Source: an uncultured virus (IMG/VR IMGVR_UViG_3300036815_000199) (lineage: Duplodnaviria > Heunggongvirae > Uroviricota > Caudoviricetes). From it: 64,000 bases of DNA. Each line of letters begins with the position of its first letter. Position 1 is the first letter of the stretch. The DNA is taken from IMG/VR virus record IMGVR_UViG_3300036815_000199; one strand, 5' to 3'. Under the pieces are notes generated by a model. It had not been told where the DNA came from. It saw nothing but the letters and a program-made list of their open reading frames with translations, and did not search any database. This document shows positions 1,903 to 60,492 of the stretch, one piece after another. The position numbers and the translations under genes are program-made.

Positions 1903-4212
1903 TCACTCGCCCCCGTCGCCCTGGCCGGTCAGGTCAGCCGGGTCGCCCTCGCCCGGGTAGTCCCCGCCGCCGCCGTCGCCGATGGCAACCGACGTGTCCC
2001 AGACGGCGATGACGGTGCCGCGGCAGCGCAGCTCGCCCTCGCAGTCGACGTAGCCGCCGTTGACGTAGTTGTCGGACGCCTCGGCCAGGCTGGCGAAGTC
2101 GGTGCCGTCGATCGCGGCGCACGGCGCGCACGTGTTGGCGTCGAGGATCTCGCTGGCGGTGTAGGTCGCCTCGGCGGGCGCCGCGTCCAGCGCCGACAGC
2201 CGTCCGGTGTTGGTCGCGGCCATCAGCGCCGCCGACAGCTGGTCGACCAGCGGCGTCGGCGACAGCCCCTGCAAGGTGACCAGCACGTCGCGGGCCGCCT
2301 CCGGGCCGGTGGTGGTCGCGTCGGTGATCCGCAGCGCCCGGTCGGCGGCCGCCGACGCGAGCCGCTGGCCCATGATCCCCGCGCGGGCCTTGGCGATCTG
2401 CACTAGGCGGGCCTCGTCGATCGCGGTGCGCGCCGGGTCGATGGTCACGCCCTGGTGCGCGGCCTCGGCGGCGACGCGGCGGGCCGCGGCGTGCGCGGCG
2501 GTGATCATCGCCTCCCGCAGCAGCGCCTCCCCGCCGCCGTCGGGCGCGGCCAGCCCGGCGAGCGCGGCCAGGTCGGAGTCGGACACCGCGGCGTTGACCT
2601 GATCGGACAGGTCCTGGGTCTGGTTCCGCAGCACCGCGGCCCACTGCCCGGCGAGCTGGTCGACGGCCGTGTTGAACGTGTCGCGGATGTCGGGGAAGTC
2701 GGCGCCGGACGCGGCCTCGGCGGCGGTCAGGTGACGGCGCAGCCCCAGCGGCGGCGGCCCGGCCGGGCGCTGCGCGCGGACCCGCCGCTGCCACCAGCGG
2801 CGGCCGGACTGGACCGTCGCGCCGCCCTGGTCCGGCGTCCCGGTCTGCGGCGGCGGCGGCGGGGCTGGCTCTGTCCCGCCCGGCGCGGCGGGGGTAGGCT
2901 GCCCGCCACCGGGTCCCGCGGGGGCGGGCCCGGCGCCGGGCGCGGGCGGCACGGGCGGGTTGACTTCCTGCTTTTCCGGCAGCCCCCAGGCGCCGCGGAT
3001 GAACGCTTCCAGCGTCGGGTCGGGGGCCAGCGCCCCGGCCGTGACGAGCAGGGACAGCGCCTCGGCGGTGACCTCGTGCCGGTCGCCGACGTCGGTCGCG
3101 CGGATCTTCGGGACCGGCTCGCCCTCGCCCCAGTTGTACTCGACCAGCGACCGGGCCAGCCCCGGCATCGTCGGTGACCCGGTGGTGGCGGTGTCGCCGA
3201 CCGCGTCGGCGGCGGCCTGCAGGCCGAGCAGGAACAGGTCAAGGAACGACTCGCCGAGCGCCCGGCTGCCGTAGGTGCCGTGCGCCAGCTCGACGATCTG
3301 CGCGAGCGCCGACCCGCTGATCTGCTGGTCGAGGTACTGCAGGAACCCGATCGCGTCGGGCGCCGATCCGGTCAGCCCGGTCAGCGCGAAGTCGTACCCG
3401 TCGGGCAGCCCGGCGCCGGCGGTGTCCCCGGCGCGCATCCCGGCGGCGAGCCGCTGCGCCTCGATGAGCATCGCCGGGGTGGCGCCGGGCGGCGCGTGCA
3501 CGGTCGGGACGCCCATCCCGAAGCGGCGGATCGCCGTCGCGTGCACCCGCAGCGTCTCGTGCTTGAGGATCCACGGCGTGTAGCAGGACCGCAGCATCGA
3601 CACGCCCGCCCAGTTGGCGCCCTCCCGCTCGTGGGCGTACCAGACCAGCCGGTTCGCCGCGACCGGGTCCTGCTGGGTGTTCTGGAACACCTGCCGGACC
3701 TGGCCGTCGTCGGCGATGTCGATGATGGCGATGGTGTGCGGCTGGCGTTCCTGCACGCCGGCCAGGTGGGTGACCCCGGCGCGGATCTCGTACCACTGCT
3801 CGAACGGCATGTGCCCGTAGACCAGGTTGAGCAGCGCCAGCCGCACGTGGTCGTGCCAGGTGAAGCCGCGGACCGGGGAGTCCTTGACCGGCGCCTTCTC
3901 GCCGAGGACCGGCAGGCCGAGGTCGTCGGCGACCAGCTGCACCGCCTCGTCGCGGTCGACGCCTTCCGGGTCGACCGCCCAGGTGGTGCGCAGGATCGGC
4001 AGGAAGAAGCTGGTCAGCACGGCGGTGATGCGGGCGTCGCGGCGCATCCGCCCGTAGGTCCGCACGCTGTCGGGCCACGTCAGGTCGGGGACGGTCTCGG
4101 CCCACTCGGTCAGCAGCCCGCCCTGGCCGGGCAGCCCCCACAGCACGTCGGGGTGGCCGACGGGCGACGTCGGCGGGGCGCCGGGCGCCACGCGCATCCC
4201 GTTCGGCGGCAT
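1903..4212 (-). CDS. Portal protein (Mu gp29/DUF935-like) fused to a C-terminal MuF/SPP1 gp7-like head morphogenesis domain
   Basis: GAGGAG RBS before ATG 4212; LVYGHMPFEQWY, GVSMLRSCYTPW, RFGMGVP, GSRALGES portal motifs; C-terminal TCAPC...CEGELRCRG. Confidence 0.88.
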   Translation of the reverse strand: MPPNGMRVAPGAPPTSPVGHPDVLWGLPGQGGLLTEWAETVPDLTWPDSVRTYGRMRRDARITAVLTSFFLPILRTTWAVDPEGVDRDEAVQLVADDLGLPVLGEKAPVKDSPVRGFTWHDHVRLALLNLVYGHMPFEQWYEIRAGVTHLAGVQERQPHTIAIIDIADDGQVRQVFQNTQQDPVAANRLVWYAHEREGANWAGVSMLRSCYTPWILKHETLRVHATAIRRFGMGVPTVHAPPGATPAMLIEAQRLAAGMRAGDTAGAGLPDGYDFALTGLTGSAPDAIGFLQYLDQQISGSALAQIVELAHGTYGSRALGESFLDLFLLGLQAAADAVGDTATTGSPTMPGLARSLVEYNWGEGEPVPKIRATDVGDRHEVTAEALSLLVTAGALAPDPTLEAFIRGAWGLPEKQEVNPPVPPAPGAGPAPAGPGGGQPTPAAPGGTEPAPPPPPQTGTPDQGGATVQSGRRWWQRRVRAQRPAGPPPLGLRRHLTAAEAASGADFPDIRDTFNTAVDQLAGQWAAVLRNQTQDLSDQVNAAVSDSDLAALAGLAAPDGGGEALLREAMITAAHAAARRVAAEAAHQGVTIDPARTAIDEARLVQIAKARAGIMGQRLASAAADRALRITDATTTGPEAARDVLVTLQGLSPTPLVDQLSAALMAATNTGRLSALDAAPAEATYTASEILDANTCAPCAAIDGTDFASLAEASDNYVNGGYVDCEGELRCRGTVIAVWDTSVAIGDGGGGDYPGEGDPADLTGQGDGGE

Positions 4213-4253
4213 CTGACTCCTCACACGCCCGGCGGTGGGCTACCTTCTTGGGC

Positions 4254-6082: not shown

Positions 6083-7696
6083 TTAGCCGAGCGGCATCGT
6101 CAGCAGGTCCTGCTCGCCGCGGTGCCCGTTGCCGGTGGCCGCCGCGTACGCGGTGTCGATCTGGTCTTCCTCGGCCGCCTTGACCGGCGGCGGCGGCTTC
6201 GCCGGGGTCCAGTGCGCGGCCGCGACCCGCGCCGCGTAGGAGAACGTGTCGACCTGGTCGTCGTGCGCGCCGCGGTCGAACGCGGCCAGCTCGTCGCACC
6301 ACTCCGCCAGCCAGTTGCCCTGCGGCCCGCAGTTGCCGCAGGTGCAGCCGGACGTCTCGGCCGGGAACCACGCCTTGCCGGAGTGCAGCCTTCCGGCGGC
6401 GGGGATCGCGCGGGTGACCTTGTCGGTGTCGGCGGTGACCTCGGCGACCGGCACCCCGGCGGCGCGGGCGTCGGCGACGAGGGTCTTGGAGTAGAACTGC
6501 CGCTCGACGAAGCACACGTCGAACCGCCACCGGTCGCGCAGCGGCGCGACCATCGAGAAGTGGTCGCCCATCTCGATGCGGGCCCGCCGCCGGTCCAGCA
6601 GGATCAGGTTGCCTTCCCGGTCGATCGCCCACACCGCGACCACCGTCCAGTCGGCGCTGGTCTTCTCCGACGCGGCGACGTCGATGGTGGCGAACCGCCA
6701 CACGGCCGGGTCGGCCAGGTCGACCCGCCGGCCCTCCAAGGTGATCCACGCTCCGGCCAGCCGGCCCAGCCGCGCGGCGGGGTCGCCTATCTCCGGCAGC
6801 GCCCGCCAGTAGCGGAACGCGGCCCGGCGGAACAGGTTACCCTCGACGGCCACCGGGTTCTGCTGGTACAGCCCGGAAAACACGTAGGCGCTCATCCCGG
6901 CGCGCAGCCGCGCGAAGTAGCCGGGCTCCCGCTTGCGCACCGACGGGAACTCCTGCCCGGGGCGGCGGCCGATCGGGTCGCGGTCCCCGGCGATCGCGGG
7001 GATCACCAGCACCCGCCAGCGCAGCGGCGACGGCCGCGCCAGGATCCTCCCCGCCAGGTCGTCCTCGTGCCAGCGGGTCTGGACCAGCACCACGATCCCG
7101 CCCGGCGCCAGCCGCGGGATGGCGACCGACTCCCACCACTGCCAGTTCGCCTCGCGCAGCCGCGCCGACTCCGCCGCCTCCCGGTCCTTGACCGGGTCGT
7201 CGATGACCAGCACCTCGACGGGCCGGCCGGCCAGCGCGCCGCCGACGCCGACGCAGTACACGCCGCCGCCCTCGGGGGTGTCCCACCGCCCGGCCGCGCT
7301 CGAGTCGGGCTGGATCCGCACGTCGAGGACCCGCCGGTCGGCGTGCGCCAGGTCCCGCTTGATCTGCCGGCCCCACCGCACCGCCATCTCCGCCTCGTAG
7401 GAGACGACGGCGATCCGCAGGGTCGGGTCGTGGGACAGCAGCCATATGGGCAGCCACCGCGAGCAGCGCTGGCTCTTGCCCTCCTGCGGCGGCATGAACA
7501 CGGCCAGCGCCTCGGCGGGCACCGCGTGGTCGGCGAGCGCGACGAGCTCCCGGTCGATCGCGGCCAGCGCCGGGCTGGTCCCGGTGTTGGGGTCCAGCGC
7601 CGCGGCGAGCTGGCCGGGCGTCGCCCACCGGCGCGGCCGCGGCTCGAAGTGCCGGGCGGCGTGCTCGCGCCAGTCGTAGTCGGCGGTCGCGGTCAC
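6083..7696 (-). CDS. terL: Terminase large subunit
   Basis: Walker A MPPQEGKS, Walker B VLVIDDPVKD, QTRWHEDDLAG, nuclease motif HDDQVD; GTG start overlaps the upstream stop. Confidence 0.95.
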   Translation of the reverse strand: MTATADYDWREHAARHFEPRPRRWATPGQLAAALDPNTGTSPALAAIDRELVALADHAVPAEALAVFMPPQEGKSQRCSRWLPIWLLSHDPTLRIAVVSYEAEMAVRWGRQIKRDLAHADRRVLDVRIQPDSSAAGRWDTPEGGGVYCVGVGGALAGRPVEVLVIDDPVKDREAAESARLREANWQWWESVAIPRLAPGGIVVLVQTRWHEDDLAGRILARPSPLRWRVLVIPAIAGDRDPIGRRPGQEFPSVRKREPGYFARLRAGMSAYVFSGLYQQNPVAVEGNLFRRAAFRYWRALPEIGDPAARLGRLAGAWITLEGRRVDLADPAVWRFATIDVAASEKTSADWTVVAVWAIDREGNLILLDRRRARIEMGDHFSMVAPLRDRWRFDVCFVERQFYSKTLVADARAAGVPVAEVTADTDKVTRAIPAAGRLHSGKAWFPAETSGCTCGNCGPQGNWLAEWCDELAAFDRGAHDDQVDTFSYAARVAAAHWTPAKPPPPVKAAEEDQIDTAYAAATGNGHRGEQDLLTMPLG

Positions 7697-15213: not shown

Positions 15214-15240
15214 CGGCGCCTCCGGTCTAGGGTGACGGTC

Positions 15241-15765
15241 ATGGTCATGGACAATCGGTGGCCGCCGACCGGGCAGCGGCACGTGGAGCTGGGCACCCGC
15301 GCCGGGATACTGCGGGCGTTCGGGACCCTGAGCGTGTTCACCGGCCTCGACGCGGTCACGGCCGTGCTCGACGGGCAGGGCGCGCAGGTGACTCTCAACG
15401 GCGTGCCGATCAGCGACGCGCGGGCGCGGCAGATCCTCGACGACGAGGCGCAGGCGATCCTCGCGGTGCTGCCGGCGCCGGGACCGGCGGTGACCTGGCA
15501 GCGGCCGCGGACCTCCGAGCAGGTCACCGGCGCCGGGCTGACCCGCACCGGCGAGGCCGCCGGGCCGGACGGGCTGCTGCGGGTCGAGTACGGCTACCAC
15601 GCGGTGTGGGCCGAGGAGCCGGCGATGGGAGAGGCACCGGCCGGCTACGTGCTGACCGAGGCGCGGACCTGGCTGAACGGGGTGCTGATCACCGACCCGG
15701 ACCGGGCGGCGAAGCTGGCGGCGGCGGCGGGCCTGCACGCGCCGCGGCAGCTGCCCGGCCGTTAG
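15241..15765 (+). CDS. Hypothetical protein
   Basis: Coding-like ORF divergent from the methyltransferase gene. Confidence 0.6.
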   Translation: MVMDNRWPPTGQRHVELGTRAGILRAFGTLSVFTGLDAVTAVLDGQGAQVTLNGVPISDARARQILDDEAQAILAVLPAPGPAVTWQRPRTSEQVTGAGLTRTGEAAGPDGLLRVEYGYHAVWAEEPAMGEAPAGYVLTEARTWLNGVLITDPDRAAKLAAAAGLHAPRQLPGR

Positions 15766-16035
15766 GTGAACCGGAGTTCAGGAATCGGGCTGCGTAACTT
15801 ACAGTACGCATTGGCTGCCCGGCCGCGGCAATGGCGAGGGCCCGCGCTGACGGGGGCACAACGCGGGCCCTGCTGGGCTGGCCTGCGGGCGGGCTCCCCG
15901 ACGGGGGCACGAGGGGCCTTGACTGATCTTGCCCGGGCCTGCTGGATGCGGTTACCAACCGGGAACGGCGGCCCGGGAACCGAAGGTCAGCGTCCGGGCA
16001 GACTGCTCCTAGCTGCCCAGTTCAGCGCACCTAAC
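15761..16035. ncRNA. Candidate structured non-coding RNA (~275 nt) with twin identical-loop hairpins
   Basis: Intergenic; ends complementary (GTTAGGTG 15761-15768 / CACCTAAC 16028-16035); at least five internal stems; 11-mer GACGGGGGCAC at 15849 and 15900 caps two separate hairpins. Confidence 0.55.
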
Positions 16036-16117
16036 CGCCGGCGTCAAGCGGTTCGCGGTCATTGCCCGCCGGCGTGTCGCGGGGGCCGCCGGGGCATTAC
16101 GCGCAATCCACCGGAAA

Positions 16118-16708
16118 CTAGCCTTTGGCGAGCGCCAGGAACTCGGCGCGGACCGGGCTGTCGAAAAACTTGCCGGTCAGGTGGGAGGTCAGCATCACGG
16201 CGCCGTCGGCGCACGGGCCGCGCAGCGTCAGGCAGGTGTGGGTCGCCTCGATCAGGCAGCCGGCGCCCTGGATGTCCAGGTGCTTGCCGAGCGCGTCGAC
16301 GACCTGCTGGCCGAGCCGTTCCTGCATCTGCGGGGCCGCCGCGTACCCGGCGACCAGCCGCGCCAGCTTGGAGATCCCGGCGACCCGGGCGCCGTCGGCG
16401 GGCAGGTAGGCGACGGTGGCGTGCCCGGTGAACGGCAGCAGGTGATGCTCGCACACCGACCGGAACGGGACCCGCTTGAGGAAGATCATCACCGCCGTGC
16501 CGGGCGGCGGCGCGAAGGTGCGGGCGAGCACGGTGCCGGCGTCGAACGGGTCGCGCAGCCCGGCGGTCAGCTCGCGCAGCGCCGCCGCGAACCGCAGCGG
16601 GGTCCGCTCCATGTCGGGGGCGTCGAGGTCGACGCCGATCGACCGGAGGAACGCCGACGCCAGGACCACGCTGTCGACCTCGCCCGGCTCCGTGCTGTAC
16701 AGCGTCAT
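16118..16708 (-). CDS. folE: GTP cyclohydrolase I
   Basis: RTPLRF, SVCEHHLLPF, GISKLAR, QMQERL, EATHTCLTLRG. Confidence 0.95.
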   Translation of the reverse strand: MTLYSTEPGEVDSVVLASAFLRSIGVDLDAPDMERTPLRFAAALRELTAGLRDPFDAGTVLARTFAPPPGTAVMIFLKRVPFRSVCEHHLLPFTGHATVAYLPADGARVAGISKLARLVAGYAAAPQMQERLGQQVVDALGKHLDIQGAGCLIEATHTCLTLRGPCADGAVMLTSHLTGKFFDSPVRAEFLALAKG

Positions 16709-28258: not shown

Positions 28259-28386
28259 GAGCGTGTTCCTCTCCTCGGAGACGATGACTGTCGTGTCCGG
28301 GACGTGTGCGCGCCGCCCCCGGCTCACCATAGGGGACGCTGAGCGGCGGCTGAAGGGTTACCGGGAAAGGTTTACCGCCGCGTTGT

Positions 28387-28417
28387 TTGACCGTCAGTGA
28401 TTGCCCTGTTACGGTCA
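28387..28417 (+). promoter_or_regulatory. Sigma70-type promoter TTGACC-N17-TACGGT overlapped by an inverted repeat
   Basis: -35 at 28387, -10 at 28410; TGACCGT 28388-28394 / ACGGTCA 28411-28417. Confidence 0.55.
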
Positions 28418-28666
28418 GGTACCATGCTCGACGGCGAGCGGCCCCCGGCCCCCCCGATCTCGGCGCTCGACGCGATCCTGGCGATCAACGGCTGGGACAC
28501 GCCGCCGCCCTCGCTCACCGACTCCCTCGCCCGGCAGGAAGCGGCCCCCTGCCGGGCGGGGGCGCCCCGCGGCCCGCACAGCGATTCTCCGCCCGCCGCG
28601 AACCCCGCTGACCCGGCCGCACGCGGCGCGGCTCGTATCACCCGGCAAATGGCCGCTCCGGGTTTT

Positions 28667-38570: not shown

Positions 38571-38585
38571 GGGTCTCTCCTTCAG

Positions 38586-38622
38586 GTTGTCCGGTTGTCT
38601 GGTAGTTGTCCGGTTGTCTGGT
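38586..38622. repeat. Perfect 18-bp direct repeat x2 (four GTTGTC units)
   Basis: GTTGTCCGGTTGTCTGGT at 38586 and 38605. Confidence 0.9.
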
Positions 38623-38627
38623 TTTTG

Positions 38628-38975
38628 TCAGTCGGTTTTGGCGGTGGCCTTGCGGCGGGGGGACGTGCGGCCGCGGTGCGCGGCGTCGGGCGGCCAGCCG
38701 CGCGACAGGCGGCGCGGCAGCCAGGCGTCGATGGTGGACTCCCACCACCACGGCGAGGGCGGCCCGTGACGGCGCCGCTCGTGCCCGTCGGGCGCGGGCA
38801 GGTCCGACGGGCGGGCCTTGCGGCGGCGGCGGCGGGTCGCGGCGTCGGAGTTGTAGCTCCACAGCGTGCGGCGGGTCAGGCCGGTGCGGTCGGACACGTC
38901 CTCGATGAACAGCTTGGCGCCGCGCCCGTCCGCGGCGGCGGGTTCGGTCGCGGGGTCGGTGATGGCGGTCGTCAT
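38628..38975 (-). CDS. AlpA/excisionase-like HTH protein
   Basis: LFIEDVSDRTGLTRRTLWSY...LPAPDG...PWWWESTIDAW. Confidence 0.75.
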   Translation of the reverse strand: MTTAITDPATEPAAADGRGAKLFIEDVSDRTGLTRRTLWSYNSDAATRRRRRKARPSDLPAPDGHERRRHGPPSPWWWESTIDAWLPRRLSRGWPPDAAHRGRTSPRRKATAKTD

Positions 38976-39084
38976 GGCGGGTTCCCTTTCGGTCGGCGGC
39001 CGGGCCAGCCGGGCGCGGCGCGCGGTGATGCGGTGCAGGTCATGGGCGCGGTGTCTCTCTCCTTCGCCGTAGCGGGCGGTCCCG

Positions 39085-39107
39085 CCGTGTTACATAAATA
39101 TATACCA
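39085..39107 (-). promoter_or_regulatory. AT-rich phage promoter repeat (variant copy)
   Basis: TGGTATATATTTATGTAACACGG, similar to the copies at 51634, 53080 and 57117. Confidence 0.65.
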
Positions 39108-39258
39108 TGCGGGGTCGGGCGGGCCAGCGGGTCCGGCGCGCCGGCCCGCCCGGGCCAGGGCGCCGCCGCTAGGCTGAGTGATCCAGGCCGCCCGCCAGGG
39201 GGCTGCGCTGACCGGGGAAGTGGCCCACGTTCCCCTGGCGGGCGGCGGTGCGCGGCGG

Positions 39259-43934: not shown

Positions 43935-44124
43935 GGGGCCGGTTAGGCGCCGGTCGGGTTAACACCGATCGACGTGCGGGCGGATGATCGGTGACGGCTG
44001 ACGGTCGACAACGGACAGCCCTCCTCTCCTTCAGTCGCCGGGCACCTGCTGCCGCCGCAGCGGCCGGGCCCCGGGCACGCGGGGCGACGGGCCCCGGCAG
44101 GTGCGCGGGGCGGGGCCCGTGTTT

Positions 44125-44200
44125 GACCACCATAGACCCCCGGGCGCGGACACGTAAGGCAAGCCGATAAAAATTGTCGGCGCGTCGTGGTATGGTCCCG
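44125..44200. promoter_or_regulatory. Divergent promoter region with central inverted-repeat operator
   Basis: TATGGT -10 boxes on both strands (44130-44135 minus, 44191-44196 plus); GCCGATAA-AAA-TTGTCGGC at 44163-44181; gene orientation switches here. Confidence 0.65.
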
Positions 44201-44394
44201 TCAGGGCTGGGAAAATGGCCCCGTAAAACCGGCTGGCCCGCCCGATCCACGTGGGTTCGGGCGGGCCCTGAAGGAGAGAGGATCCCGTGACAGCGGGCTA
44301 AGCCCGGCACCGCGAGGAGGCGAACGCGGGTGAGAAGCCCGGACGCCTTTACCTCTCGACCCCGATGGTAGCACCCATCGCATGGAGGAACGCA

Positions 44395-56522: not shown

Positions 56523-56647
56523 CGGTCAGCCTTCCTGCCCGGCGGCGGGCGCCGCCGGGGTCTCGTTGTGCTCGGCGCAGGCCGGGCGGGGGCCGAGCCC
56601 CCGCCAGTATCCCGCGCAGGTGCAGTTGGCGCTCATCAGGTTCGCCA

Positions 56648-56830
56648 TCAGTGGCTCACCATCGCGCCGCGCATGCCGACGCGCGGCGAGCGGGCCGGGC
56701 GGCCGCCGGAGCGGCTGACGTAGGCCGGCGCCGAGAACCGCCAGTAGCGGTCGGCGCGGACGAACCAGCGGCCGCGGTGGTAAGTCTTGCGGCCGGCGAA
56801 GTGGTCGCGGTTGCTGTTGGTGGTGATCAC
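56648..56830 (-). CDS. Small basic hypothetical protein
   Basis: CTGAAGGAGAGA before GTG. Confidence 0.6.
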   Translation of the reverse strand: MITTNSNRDHFAGRKTYHRGRWFVRADRYWRFSAPAYVSRSGGRPARSPRVGMRGAMVSH

Positions 56831-56843
56831 GGGTCTCTCTCCT

Positions 56844-60076: not shown

Positions 60077-60387
60077 GCGCGCAGTGTAACACCCGCGTGA
60101 CGCTGCGATGCCGGGGGCGCGGGCCGGCCCCGCACCGTGCACGTTGGTTCCCTGATAGGCGGGAGGGGCCGGCCCGGCGTCCCGGGCCGCGCTCTGCCGG
60201 TCTGAGCCCAGCGACGGGGGAAGAGCGGCCAGCGTCCGGCCCGGTGACCCGGCCATGATACGCGGCGGCCGGCCGGGAACCCAGCGACGGGCCCGGCCGG
60301 CCGTGATTCCTTGGCGTCGCCCTGCCGTTAGCTGACAGGCGGTGCACAGAAGGTTACGCTACGCGGCCGGGCCGCGTCGAGCCCTGA

Positions 60388-60472
60388 GTGTGCCCGACGG
60401 CACAGCGATGGAACGCGTTTTCGGTAGCCGCACCCTGACCAGGCTGGTATTGTACATATATAAGCAATACGG
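60388..60472 (+). promoter_or_regulatory. Extended promoter cassette with palindromic operator (paralogous to 61234-61329)
   Basis: GTGTGCCCGACGGCACA...GTTTTCGG...CCGCAC.CTGACC...TGGTATTGTACATATATAAGCAATACGG. Confidence 0.8.
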
Positions 60473-60492
60473 TATCTGAAGGAGCCCAGACA

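Follow-up and report, generated by a model that had tools for sequence, protein, structure and literature searches.

The loops of the actinobacterial 6C RNAs carry six or more conserved cytosines. It has been shown that such C-rich loops pair with G-rich mRNA sites and that a chaperone is not needed for this (Mai et al. 2019, PMC6486639). Among phage RNAs, a described case is AgvB, an anti-sRNA of the EHEC prophage Sp5 (Tree et al. 2014, as described in PMC12197685), which imitates mRNA targets and acts together with Hfq in a proteobacterium. The terms 'Actinobacteria' and 'mycobacteriophage' each have 0 occurrences in that review, and a literature search in which phage-encoded sRNA was joined with actinobacteriophage found no paper.

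The element described here lies in the window, the whole 64,000-nt stretch of DNA that was analysed. With 6C it has in common two hairpins, C-rich loops as the putative active surface, an actinobacterial setting and probably the principle by which a loop recognizes a G-rich site; it differs in that its five cytosines are flanked by GUG and GUC, whereas 6C has runs of at least six. The likeness to AgvB is that of a phage RNA that would act on a host sRNA network through sequence mimicry, but the phage element copies the loops of the sRNA itself, or complements them on the other strand, and does so in an actinomycete setting. Like bidirectional intrinsic terminators it occupies a convergent-gene position and has GC-rich hairpins that fold on both strands; unlike them it is without U tracts, has two identical loops in common with a host RNA, and shows more structure than termination needs. 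Judged from its sequence, the element is a variant carrying the putative recognition loops of a newly recognised host sRNA family, and the shared loops suggest that the phage, an actinophage from soil, may imitate or intercept a host regulator.

The gap beside folE and its twin hairpins

The gene content of the window, whose G+C is 75.7%, reads as phage and includes a small terminase, RecT/YqaJ, DnaB and a ligase. An earlier note on this DNA had assigned the element to a phage, which agrees with the large terminase (6083-7696, minus strand), the Mu-type portal (1903-4224, minus strand) and the FolE-QueE-QueD-QueC-DpdA operon. This deazaguanine operon, on the minus strand, comprises a ParB-like gene, DpdA (phrog_7068), QueC, QueD, QueE and FolE, and its last gene, folE (GTP cyclohydrolase I; 16118-16708, minus strand; PF01227, E 5e-47), lies directly upstream of the element on the minus strand. 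Convergent with folE is a 177-aa ORF (15232-15765, plus strand; GC3 0.96), for which Pfam and PHROG searches gave no match, so that it is not assignable to a family. The sole relative found with the element, G002 (IMGVR_UViG_3300036821_000136), has 86-92% nucleotide identity to the window over about 5 kb, the 177-aa ORF being 86.5% identical. Two remoter relatives (L403 and L407), in which the neighbouring genes remain, have neither the que operon nor the 177-aa ORF nor the element; these three belong to an accessory region. The 177-aa ORF and 15766-16117 together make up an island on the opposite strand within a long minus-strand block.

The gap between the two genes (15766-16117) measures 352 nt and ranks fourth among 101 gaps between ORF calls (median -4), in agreement with the earlier remark that the spacing after the deazaguanine operon is unusually large. 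Five further non-coding gaps, at 38571-39258, 43935-44364, 60077-60492, 28331-28666 and 56523-56843, span 321-688 nt in the otherwise densely packed genome. In the frame plot, G+C by third position is marked as far as 15765 and resumes at 16118, with the phase signal absent between, and G+C is flat (0.67-0.78) in all three phases across 15790-16060. A small protein-coding gene, which had been named as a possible identity of the element, was rejected, since GC3 is without codon phase and indels of 2, 1 and 6 nt relative to G002 break the frame; the element is non-coding, as had been proposed. A dispersed repeat of the REP or MITE kind, another identity considered earlier, was likewise rejected: the element is single-copy in the window, where a self-search gave only chance matches of at most 19 nt, and in G002 the loop 11-mer occurs in two copies, both in the element.

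Hairpin A (15837-15871, minus strand) has the 13-pair stem attributed to it, one pair being C.A on the plus and G.U on the minus strand, while the weaker stem of hairpin B (15892-15918, minus strand) has nine positions, with one mismatch and one wobble whichever strand is read. The nine-position stem claimed for hairpin B thus exists, but with a mismatch, and taken alone its predicted energy does not surpass that of shuffles (about -12.5 kcal/mol on either strand; z -0.07 on the plus and -0.95 on the minus strand); in a 100-nt context it is displaced. The two loops, first described as identical over 9 nt, are identical over 11 nt (15849-15859 and 15900-15910, both assigned to the minus strand), reading GACGGGGGCAC on the plus and GUGCCCCCGUC on the minus strand. 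The exact loop 9-mer is found in only these two places in the 64-kb window, and its one-mismatch variants are fewer than in shuffles (13 vs 46). That two equivalent loops are a meaningful feature is borne out by their recurrence in the host RNA family described below; a literature search for the 11-mer returned unrelated primers only. The remaining stems exist as well: one, at 15791-15810, belongs to the spacer 15766-15820 that also holds the 5' closing arm; a long hairpin (15923-15990, plus strand) is much more stable on the plus strand and may be a terminator of the 177-aa ORF; and a small hairpin (15996-16018; -13 kcal/mol on the plus strand, -14.3 on the minus strand) stands with CAGTTCAGCGCACCTAAC in the block 15991-16035.

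These parts are unequally kept in G002. Over 15821-16117, 255 of 299 alignment columns are identical, as against 5 of 55 over 15766-15820, and because the latter stretch is missing from G002 the closing helix and the first hairpin are not conserved. The ends of the element had been said to pair, and GTTAGGTG and CACCTAAC are indeed complementary, but the 5' arm is not conserved in G002 and overlaps the stop codon of the ORF; with closing arm and first hairpin missing there, the proposed closed multi-branch architecture is not supported. The best kept regions are the block 15991-16035 (44/45 columns) and hairpin A (39/41), and hairpin B keeps 27/31, one C and its partner G being both gone, so that one base pair is lost as a unit. 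The long hairpin is the worst kept region of the retained part (48/70), its outer CUGA./.UCAG and inner CCGGGCC/GGCCCGG pairings being retained. Since the two carrier phages are about 90% alike, they provide almost no covariation test among phages.

Further carriers were sought in several ways. A blastn search with the element as query found nothing among 50,697 phage records, a larger query hit que genes alone, in phages of Mycobacterium, Gordonia and Arthrobacter, and FolE as a lone query retrieved G002 as the only relative. Of 80 terminase-relative loci taken, none of the 78 outside the G002 lineage has the loop 11-mer within +-10 kb; the G002 locus in this set ends at a contig edge. Among the matches listed in a loose motif scan of viral contigs (ACGGGGGCA twice), most were coding or tandem repeats, and a stricter scan of viral contigs gave six loci, namely G001 (described below), G002 and four tandem repeats.

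A host RNA family with the same loops

A scan for GTGCCCCCGTC occurring twice, 15-45 nt apart, listed matches in at least 119 metagenome stretches and at least 120 GTDB genome stretches, both counts being lower bounds. Among the matches listed and the window there are 287 motif pairs, and in 127 of these a simple stem test places both motifs within hairpin loops: at least 118 belong to one family with a gap of 22-26 nt, two are the window and G002, and seven are tandem repeats. The family is a compact RNA of about 100 nt with two hairpins, each displaying the 11-nt loop GUGCCCCCGUC; one copy lies at L125 7661-7772 (plus strand), and further copies are L140-L372. The copies, at least 118 in number, reduce to 112 unique sequences, of which 88 were aligned; a tandem repeat (L229) was set aside, as were 23 instances of the commonest variant whose only differences lie in the flanks.

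In the consensus, a GC-rich closing stem of 13 bp encloses the two hairpins. Of the 2547 cells in the alignment 99.3% are paired, and compensatory change is seen at 8 of the 29 pairs; at one of them, for instance, 58 sequences have GC and 30 have AU. Not one of the 500 shuffles attained even a single one of the five measures, and slid controls are 28-58% paired. The G.U pairs of the closing stem identify the C-loop strand as the RNA strand. Of the 63 unique copies with flanks, 61 have a promoter of the form TTGNNN-N17/18-TANNNT, most commonly TTGTAC-N17-TATCGT, 7-8 nt ahead of the stem; L229 and the divergent L210 are without it. The divergent upstream neighbour is a class-I fumarate hydratase at all three loci tested, and most of 22 flanked loci have a divergent ORF of 550-635 codons, while downstream genes vary. 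The sequences come from soil metagenomes and from uncultured Streptosporangiaceae/Trebonia-type genomes, with record titles naming Streptosporangiaceae, Trebonia, Nocardiopsaceae and uncultured Actinomycetes MAGs. Within one GTDB family 201 genomes were sampled, and 19 of them, one a repeat, contain the exact pattern. Covariance model R1 turned up no more host copies in 150 genomes drawn from the class and 120 from the order, a weak negative, since 25-31 of thousands of candidates were scored per genome.

A search with the closing stem only gave 30 matches, of which 13 are true members, and all 13 carry the same loops; by this sequence comparison the host loops are invariant even when not selected for. 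The 11-mer itself has 8-10 copies per host genome of 6-10 Mb, compared with 2-7 for the reversed control. A G5 run near the start is missing from the fumarase 5' region in 15 of 16 loci, and the fumarase is not an obvious target.

Three other features of these loci were observed. The motif CCTAAGCT(G/T) is conserved some 100-250 nt ahead of where the fumarase gene starts (L258, L273 and L276 are examples) and is perhaps its -10 region. A palindrome, GGGGTAAATGCGCATTTACCCC, occurs twice at L217 86-168, upstream of the sRNA; it gave a false miRNA match in Rfam and has an operator-like look. Between the sRNA and a MarR gene, a long inverted repeat, CAACGATGTAAGGATGTAGCGG...CCGCCACGTATTTACATCGTTG, lies at L125 7958-8010.

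The host RNA loci match no family in Rfam 15. The whole window gave no match to Rfam at the gathering threshold, the element (15600-16200) gave only noise at E<=10 (M23, mir-7964, sR53), and ARAGORN found neither tRNA nor tmRNA; a check against Rfam of the kind earlier proposed, with 6C and phage ncRNAs in view, thus matched nothing relevant. For 6C membership a score of at least 47 bits with the RF01066 covariance model was taken as the criterion. At E<=10 neither 15600-16200 nor the element of G002 matched RF01066, which in G001 and G002 gave only noise of at most 12.5 bits, elsewhere. The loops of the element, UGCCCCCGU, have five cytosines rather than six or more, and canonical 6C RNAs, with loops ACCCCCCCA and CUCUCCCCCCCGG, occupy separate loci in genomes carrying the GUGCCCCCGUC RNA (L377 419-494, minus strand; also L379, L378 and L376; 45.9-63.8 bits). 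Two host-RNA genomes tested gave 55.5 and 45.9 bits, with C7 loops. That the element is a diverged member of the 6C family, as two C-rich-loop hairpins in an actinobacterial setting might suggest, is on these grounds hardly credible, and the 6C-like label of the earlier note fails as a statement of membership. A 6C-like way of working, with the C-rich loops as seeds, would still be the best analogy. The host family is well supported by its sequences, 6C-like in design but a distinct gene.

Model R1 scores 116.7 bits on the host copy in G001 and 13.2 bits (E=2) on 15797-15878 of the window, minus strand, where it covers hairpin A only. Phage element and host RNA (model R1, alignment A2) agree in having two hairpins with GUGCCCCCGUC in both loops on one strand. 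They differ in the closing stem, which in the host is about 13 bp and GC-rich, whereas in the window GTTAGGTG/CACCTAAC is an unrelated sequence that spans 275 nt and lacks its 5' arm in G002. The loops are separated by 40 nt (window) or 41 nt (G002), as compared with 22-26 nt for at least 118 host copies, a comparison in which 40-nt host variants may have escaped. The host RNA mostly has its own promoter, whereas TTGNNN-N16-18-TANNNT was found on neither strand in 15700-16200; and the host RNA is fixed beside the fumarase gene, whereas the phage element has no such place. As far as the sequences tell, what the element and the host RNA have in common is limited to the hairpins that bear the loops, and R1 does not establish a wider homology.

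A prophage at the host RNA promoter

The phage group and the host RNA locus are linked through G001 (IMGVR_UViG_3300036820_000005, 111 kb), whose portal and terminase are 51% and 61% identical to those of the window. A 17-nt direct repeat, GTTACGACTTGTACATG, occurs at contig positions 111-127 (L126 111-127) and 108620-108636 (L125 7621-7637) and bounds a prophage of about 108.5 kb. The left flank matches the host spacer on the fumarase side, a tyrosine integrase follows directly after attL, and the right flank, beyond attR, consists of the host sRNA, then MarR and an MFS transporter; the copy of the RNA in G001 is thus that of the host and not phage-borne, and the phage part has 0 copies of the 11-mer. 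The att repeat and the host sRNA promoter overlap at the -35, and the repeat, taken with its flanks, places the prophage in that region of the promoter.

Five GGGGCAC(A) repeats, in a single orientation, lie in the phage arms by the att core (L125 7486-7521, L126 182-199). They resemble arm-type integrase sites, and the core of the repeat is the complement of the sRNA loop.

A DNA-level role for the element was weighed in this context, namely that its two GACGGGGGCAC copies serve as DNA binding sites for a protein of phage or host, such as arm-type sites of an integrase. The G001 repeats, to which the plus-strand copies within the 18 kb examined are confined, speak for such a role, but the window is without an integrase, that of G002 (75243-75740; element at about 6200) is about 39 or 69 kb away, the att core of G001 is missing in G002, and the presence of the motif in the loops of covarying stems of the host family is a signature of RNA; we regard this explanation as improbable. 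The element as attP was rejected, there being no integrase among the 102 ORFs of the window and no G001 att core in G002.

Strand and possible roles of the element

The promoter-like sequence TTGACG-N17-TGAACT, which had been described as pointing into the element on the minus strand, is present at 16019-16047 (minus strand), and both hexamers are kept in G002 with changes confined to the spacer, but its -10 is without A at position 2 and a sigma-70-type promoter scan gave 0 sites on both strands at the element. A scan for terminators in 15600-16250 also gave 0 sites on either strand, U tracts being absent; actinobacterial terminators without U tracts are possible. The twin loops are real and meaningful, while the framing of the element as a closed multi-branch, 6C-like RNA with its own promoter is wrong.

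Folding against shuffled controls, as had been suggested, placed the whole element (275 nt) somewhat below shuffles in energy on both strands (z -2.64 plus, -2.98 minus). Hairpin A is predicted at -28.1 kcal/mol on the minus strand (z -5.6) and -23.2 on the plus strand (z -3.2), and the 100-nt core reaches z -2.0 (window) and -2.05 (G002) on the minus strand as against -0.48 and +0.17 on the plus strand. In both hairpins the third pair from the loop is G.U on the minus and C.A on the plus strand. The long hairpin shows the opposite preference (-39 kcal/mol, z -4.2, on the plus strand vs -28, z -1.8, on the minus strand). These predictions favour the minus strand for the two-hairpin core, from which we infer its strand.

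The best reading, held tentatively, is that of a minus-strand RNA, read through from folE, that mimics the seed loops of the host sRNA; transcription, strand, action in trans and targets are what we infer within it. The conserved core, about 15821-15920, would be an RNA module at the tail of the folE-operon transcript, displaying two GUGCCCCCGUC loops as does the sRNA of the likely hosts, which are probably Streptosporangiaceae/Trebonia-type actinomycetes. The phage RNA would bind whatever the host loops bind, which by the 6C analogy may be G-rich single-stranded mRNA sites such as ribosome-binding sites, and could thereby mimic or out-compete the host regulator during infection or lysogeny. 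In favour of this reading are the covariation, promoter and fumarase neighbourhood that support the host family, the invariance of its loops (13/13 by the closing stem alone), the scarcity of the 11-mer elsewhere in host genomes, the integration of a relative at the host RNA promoter, which means that the phage meets this RNA, the better fold of the core on the minus strand, with G.U in place of C.A, the direction shared with folE, and the pairing of 6C loops with G-rich sites without a chaperone (PMC6486639). On the other hand, a host-type promoter stands on neither strand, the element occurs in just two phage genomes of about 90% likeness and its 11-mer in 0/78 other terminase-relative loci, the R1 score is low, hairpin B is marginal, the adjoining long hairpin prefers the plus strand by 11 kcal/mol, and RNAfold partly closes the C loop through G.U and C-G pairs, leaving CCCC.

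The plus strand lends itself to another explanation, in which the element is the 3' UTR of the 177-aa ORF and its GACGGGGGCAC loops, which are perfectly complementary to both loops of the host sRNA, would act as an anti-sRNA sponge by kissing them. With its end at 15765, the ORF lies immediately upstream of the element and is directed into it, and the two form the opposite-strand island noted above; the 9-nt loops remain fully open on the plus strand, the long hairpin is more stable there and could end the ORF transcript, and anti-sRNAs of phages that mimic targets are known from AgvB, which acts against GcvB (PMC12197685). Yet on this strand the two-hairpin core folds like shuffles, both hairpins have the C.A mismatch, and the sole promoter-like site, TTCAGG-N17-TACAGT at 15777-15805, which was read by eye and is unconfirmed by the scans, falls in the part that G002 is without. 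This explanation seems rather unlikely.

It is also conceivable, if unlikely, that the element is a stack of terminators for convergent genes whose loops are the decaying relic of a captured host sRNA with no present function in trans. Its place between two convergent 3' ends, the several independent strong hairpins with mixed strand preference, the lack of a promoter in the scans and the loss of host closing stem, spacing and promoter fit such a relic, and because G001 integrated right beside the host sRNA gene, capture through faulty excision is plausible. What argues against this reading is that both 11-nt loops are intact and identical while all else differs from the host RNA, and that the two-hairpin part is among the better kept, ahead of the long hairpin next door; the scan with 0 terminator-like sites and no U tracts, and the fact that the 11-mer is not common as a terminator loop in host genomes, argue against it too.

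Within the preferred reading of a minus-strand mimic, one candidate pairing site was found in the window itself. GACGGGGGC (1909-1917, minus strand) is complementary to the loop over 9 nt and lies at -17 to -9 of the start of a 633-aa gene, the gene after the portal, in its ribosome-binding region. It is the sole match of at least 9 nt among 102 start regions (0.12 expected from 20000 random windows) and is retained in G002 amid indels; as a sequence match it is suggestive, and non-significant alone.

A broader proposal, which we consider speculative and unlikely, is that a single sRNA regulon is contested between phages of this group and the actinomycetes they infect, with a decoy or sponge in the lineage of the window and G002. 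The host GUGCCCCCGUC loops would pair with G-rich start regions, including GACGGGGGC before the phage head gene; the G001 lineage would integrate into the host RNA promoter, the window/G002 lineage would carry its two-loop copy, and the phage rather than the host would set the activity of the regulon. If this were true, the element would be the first actinophage RNA targeting a specific host sRNA, and a function would be given to a new and widespread sRNA of soil actinomycetes.

The host RNA adds a second C-loop regulator to bacteria whose sRNA biology is almost unstudied. If the loops of the phage element are active, nature would have set up a clean experiment that can show which sites C-loop sRNA seeds recognise, and the phage would be an example, from outside the proteobacteria, of interference with the sRNA network of a host.
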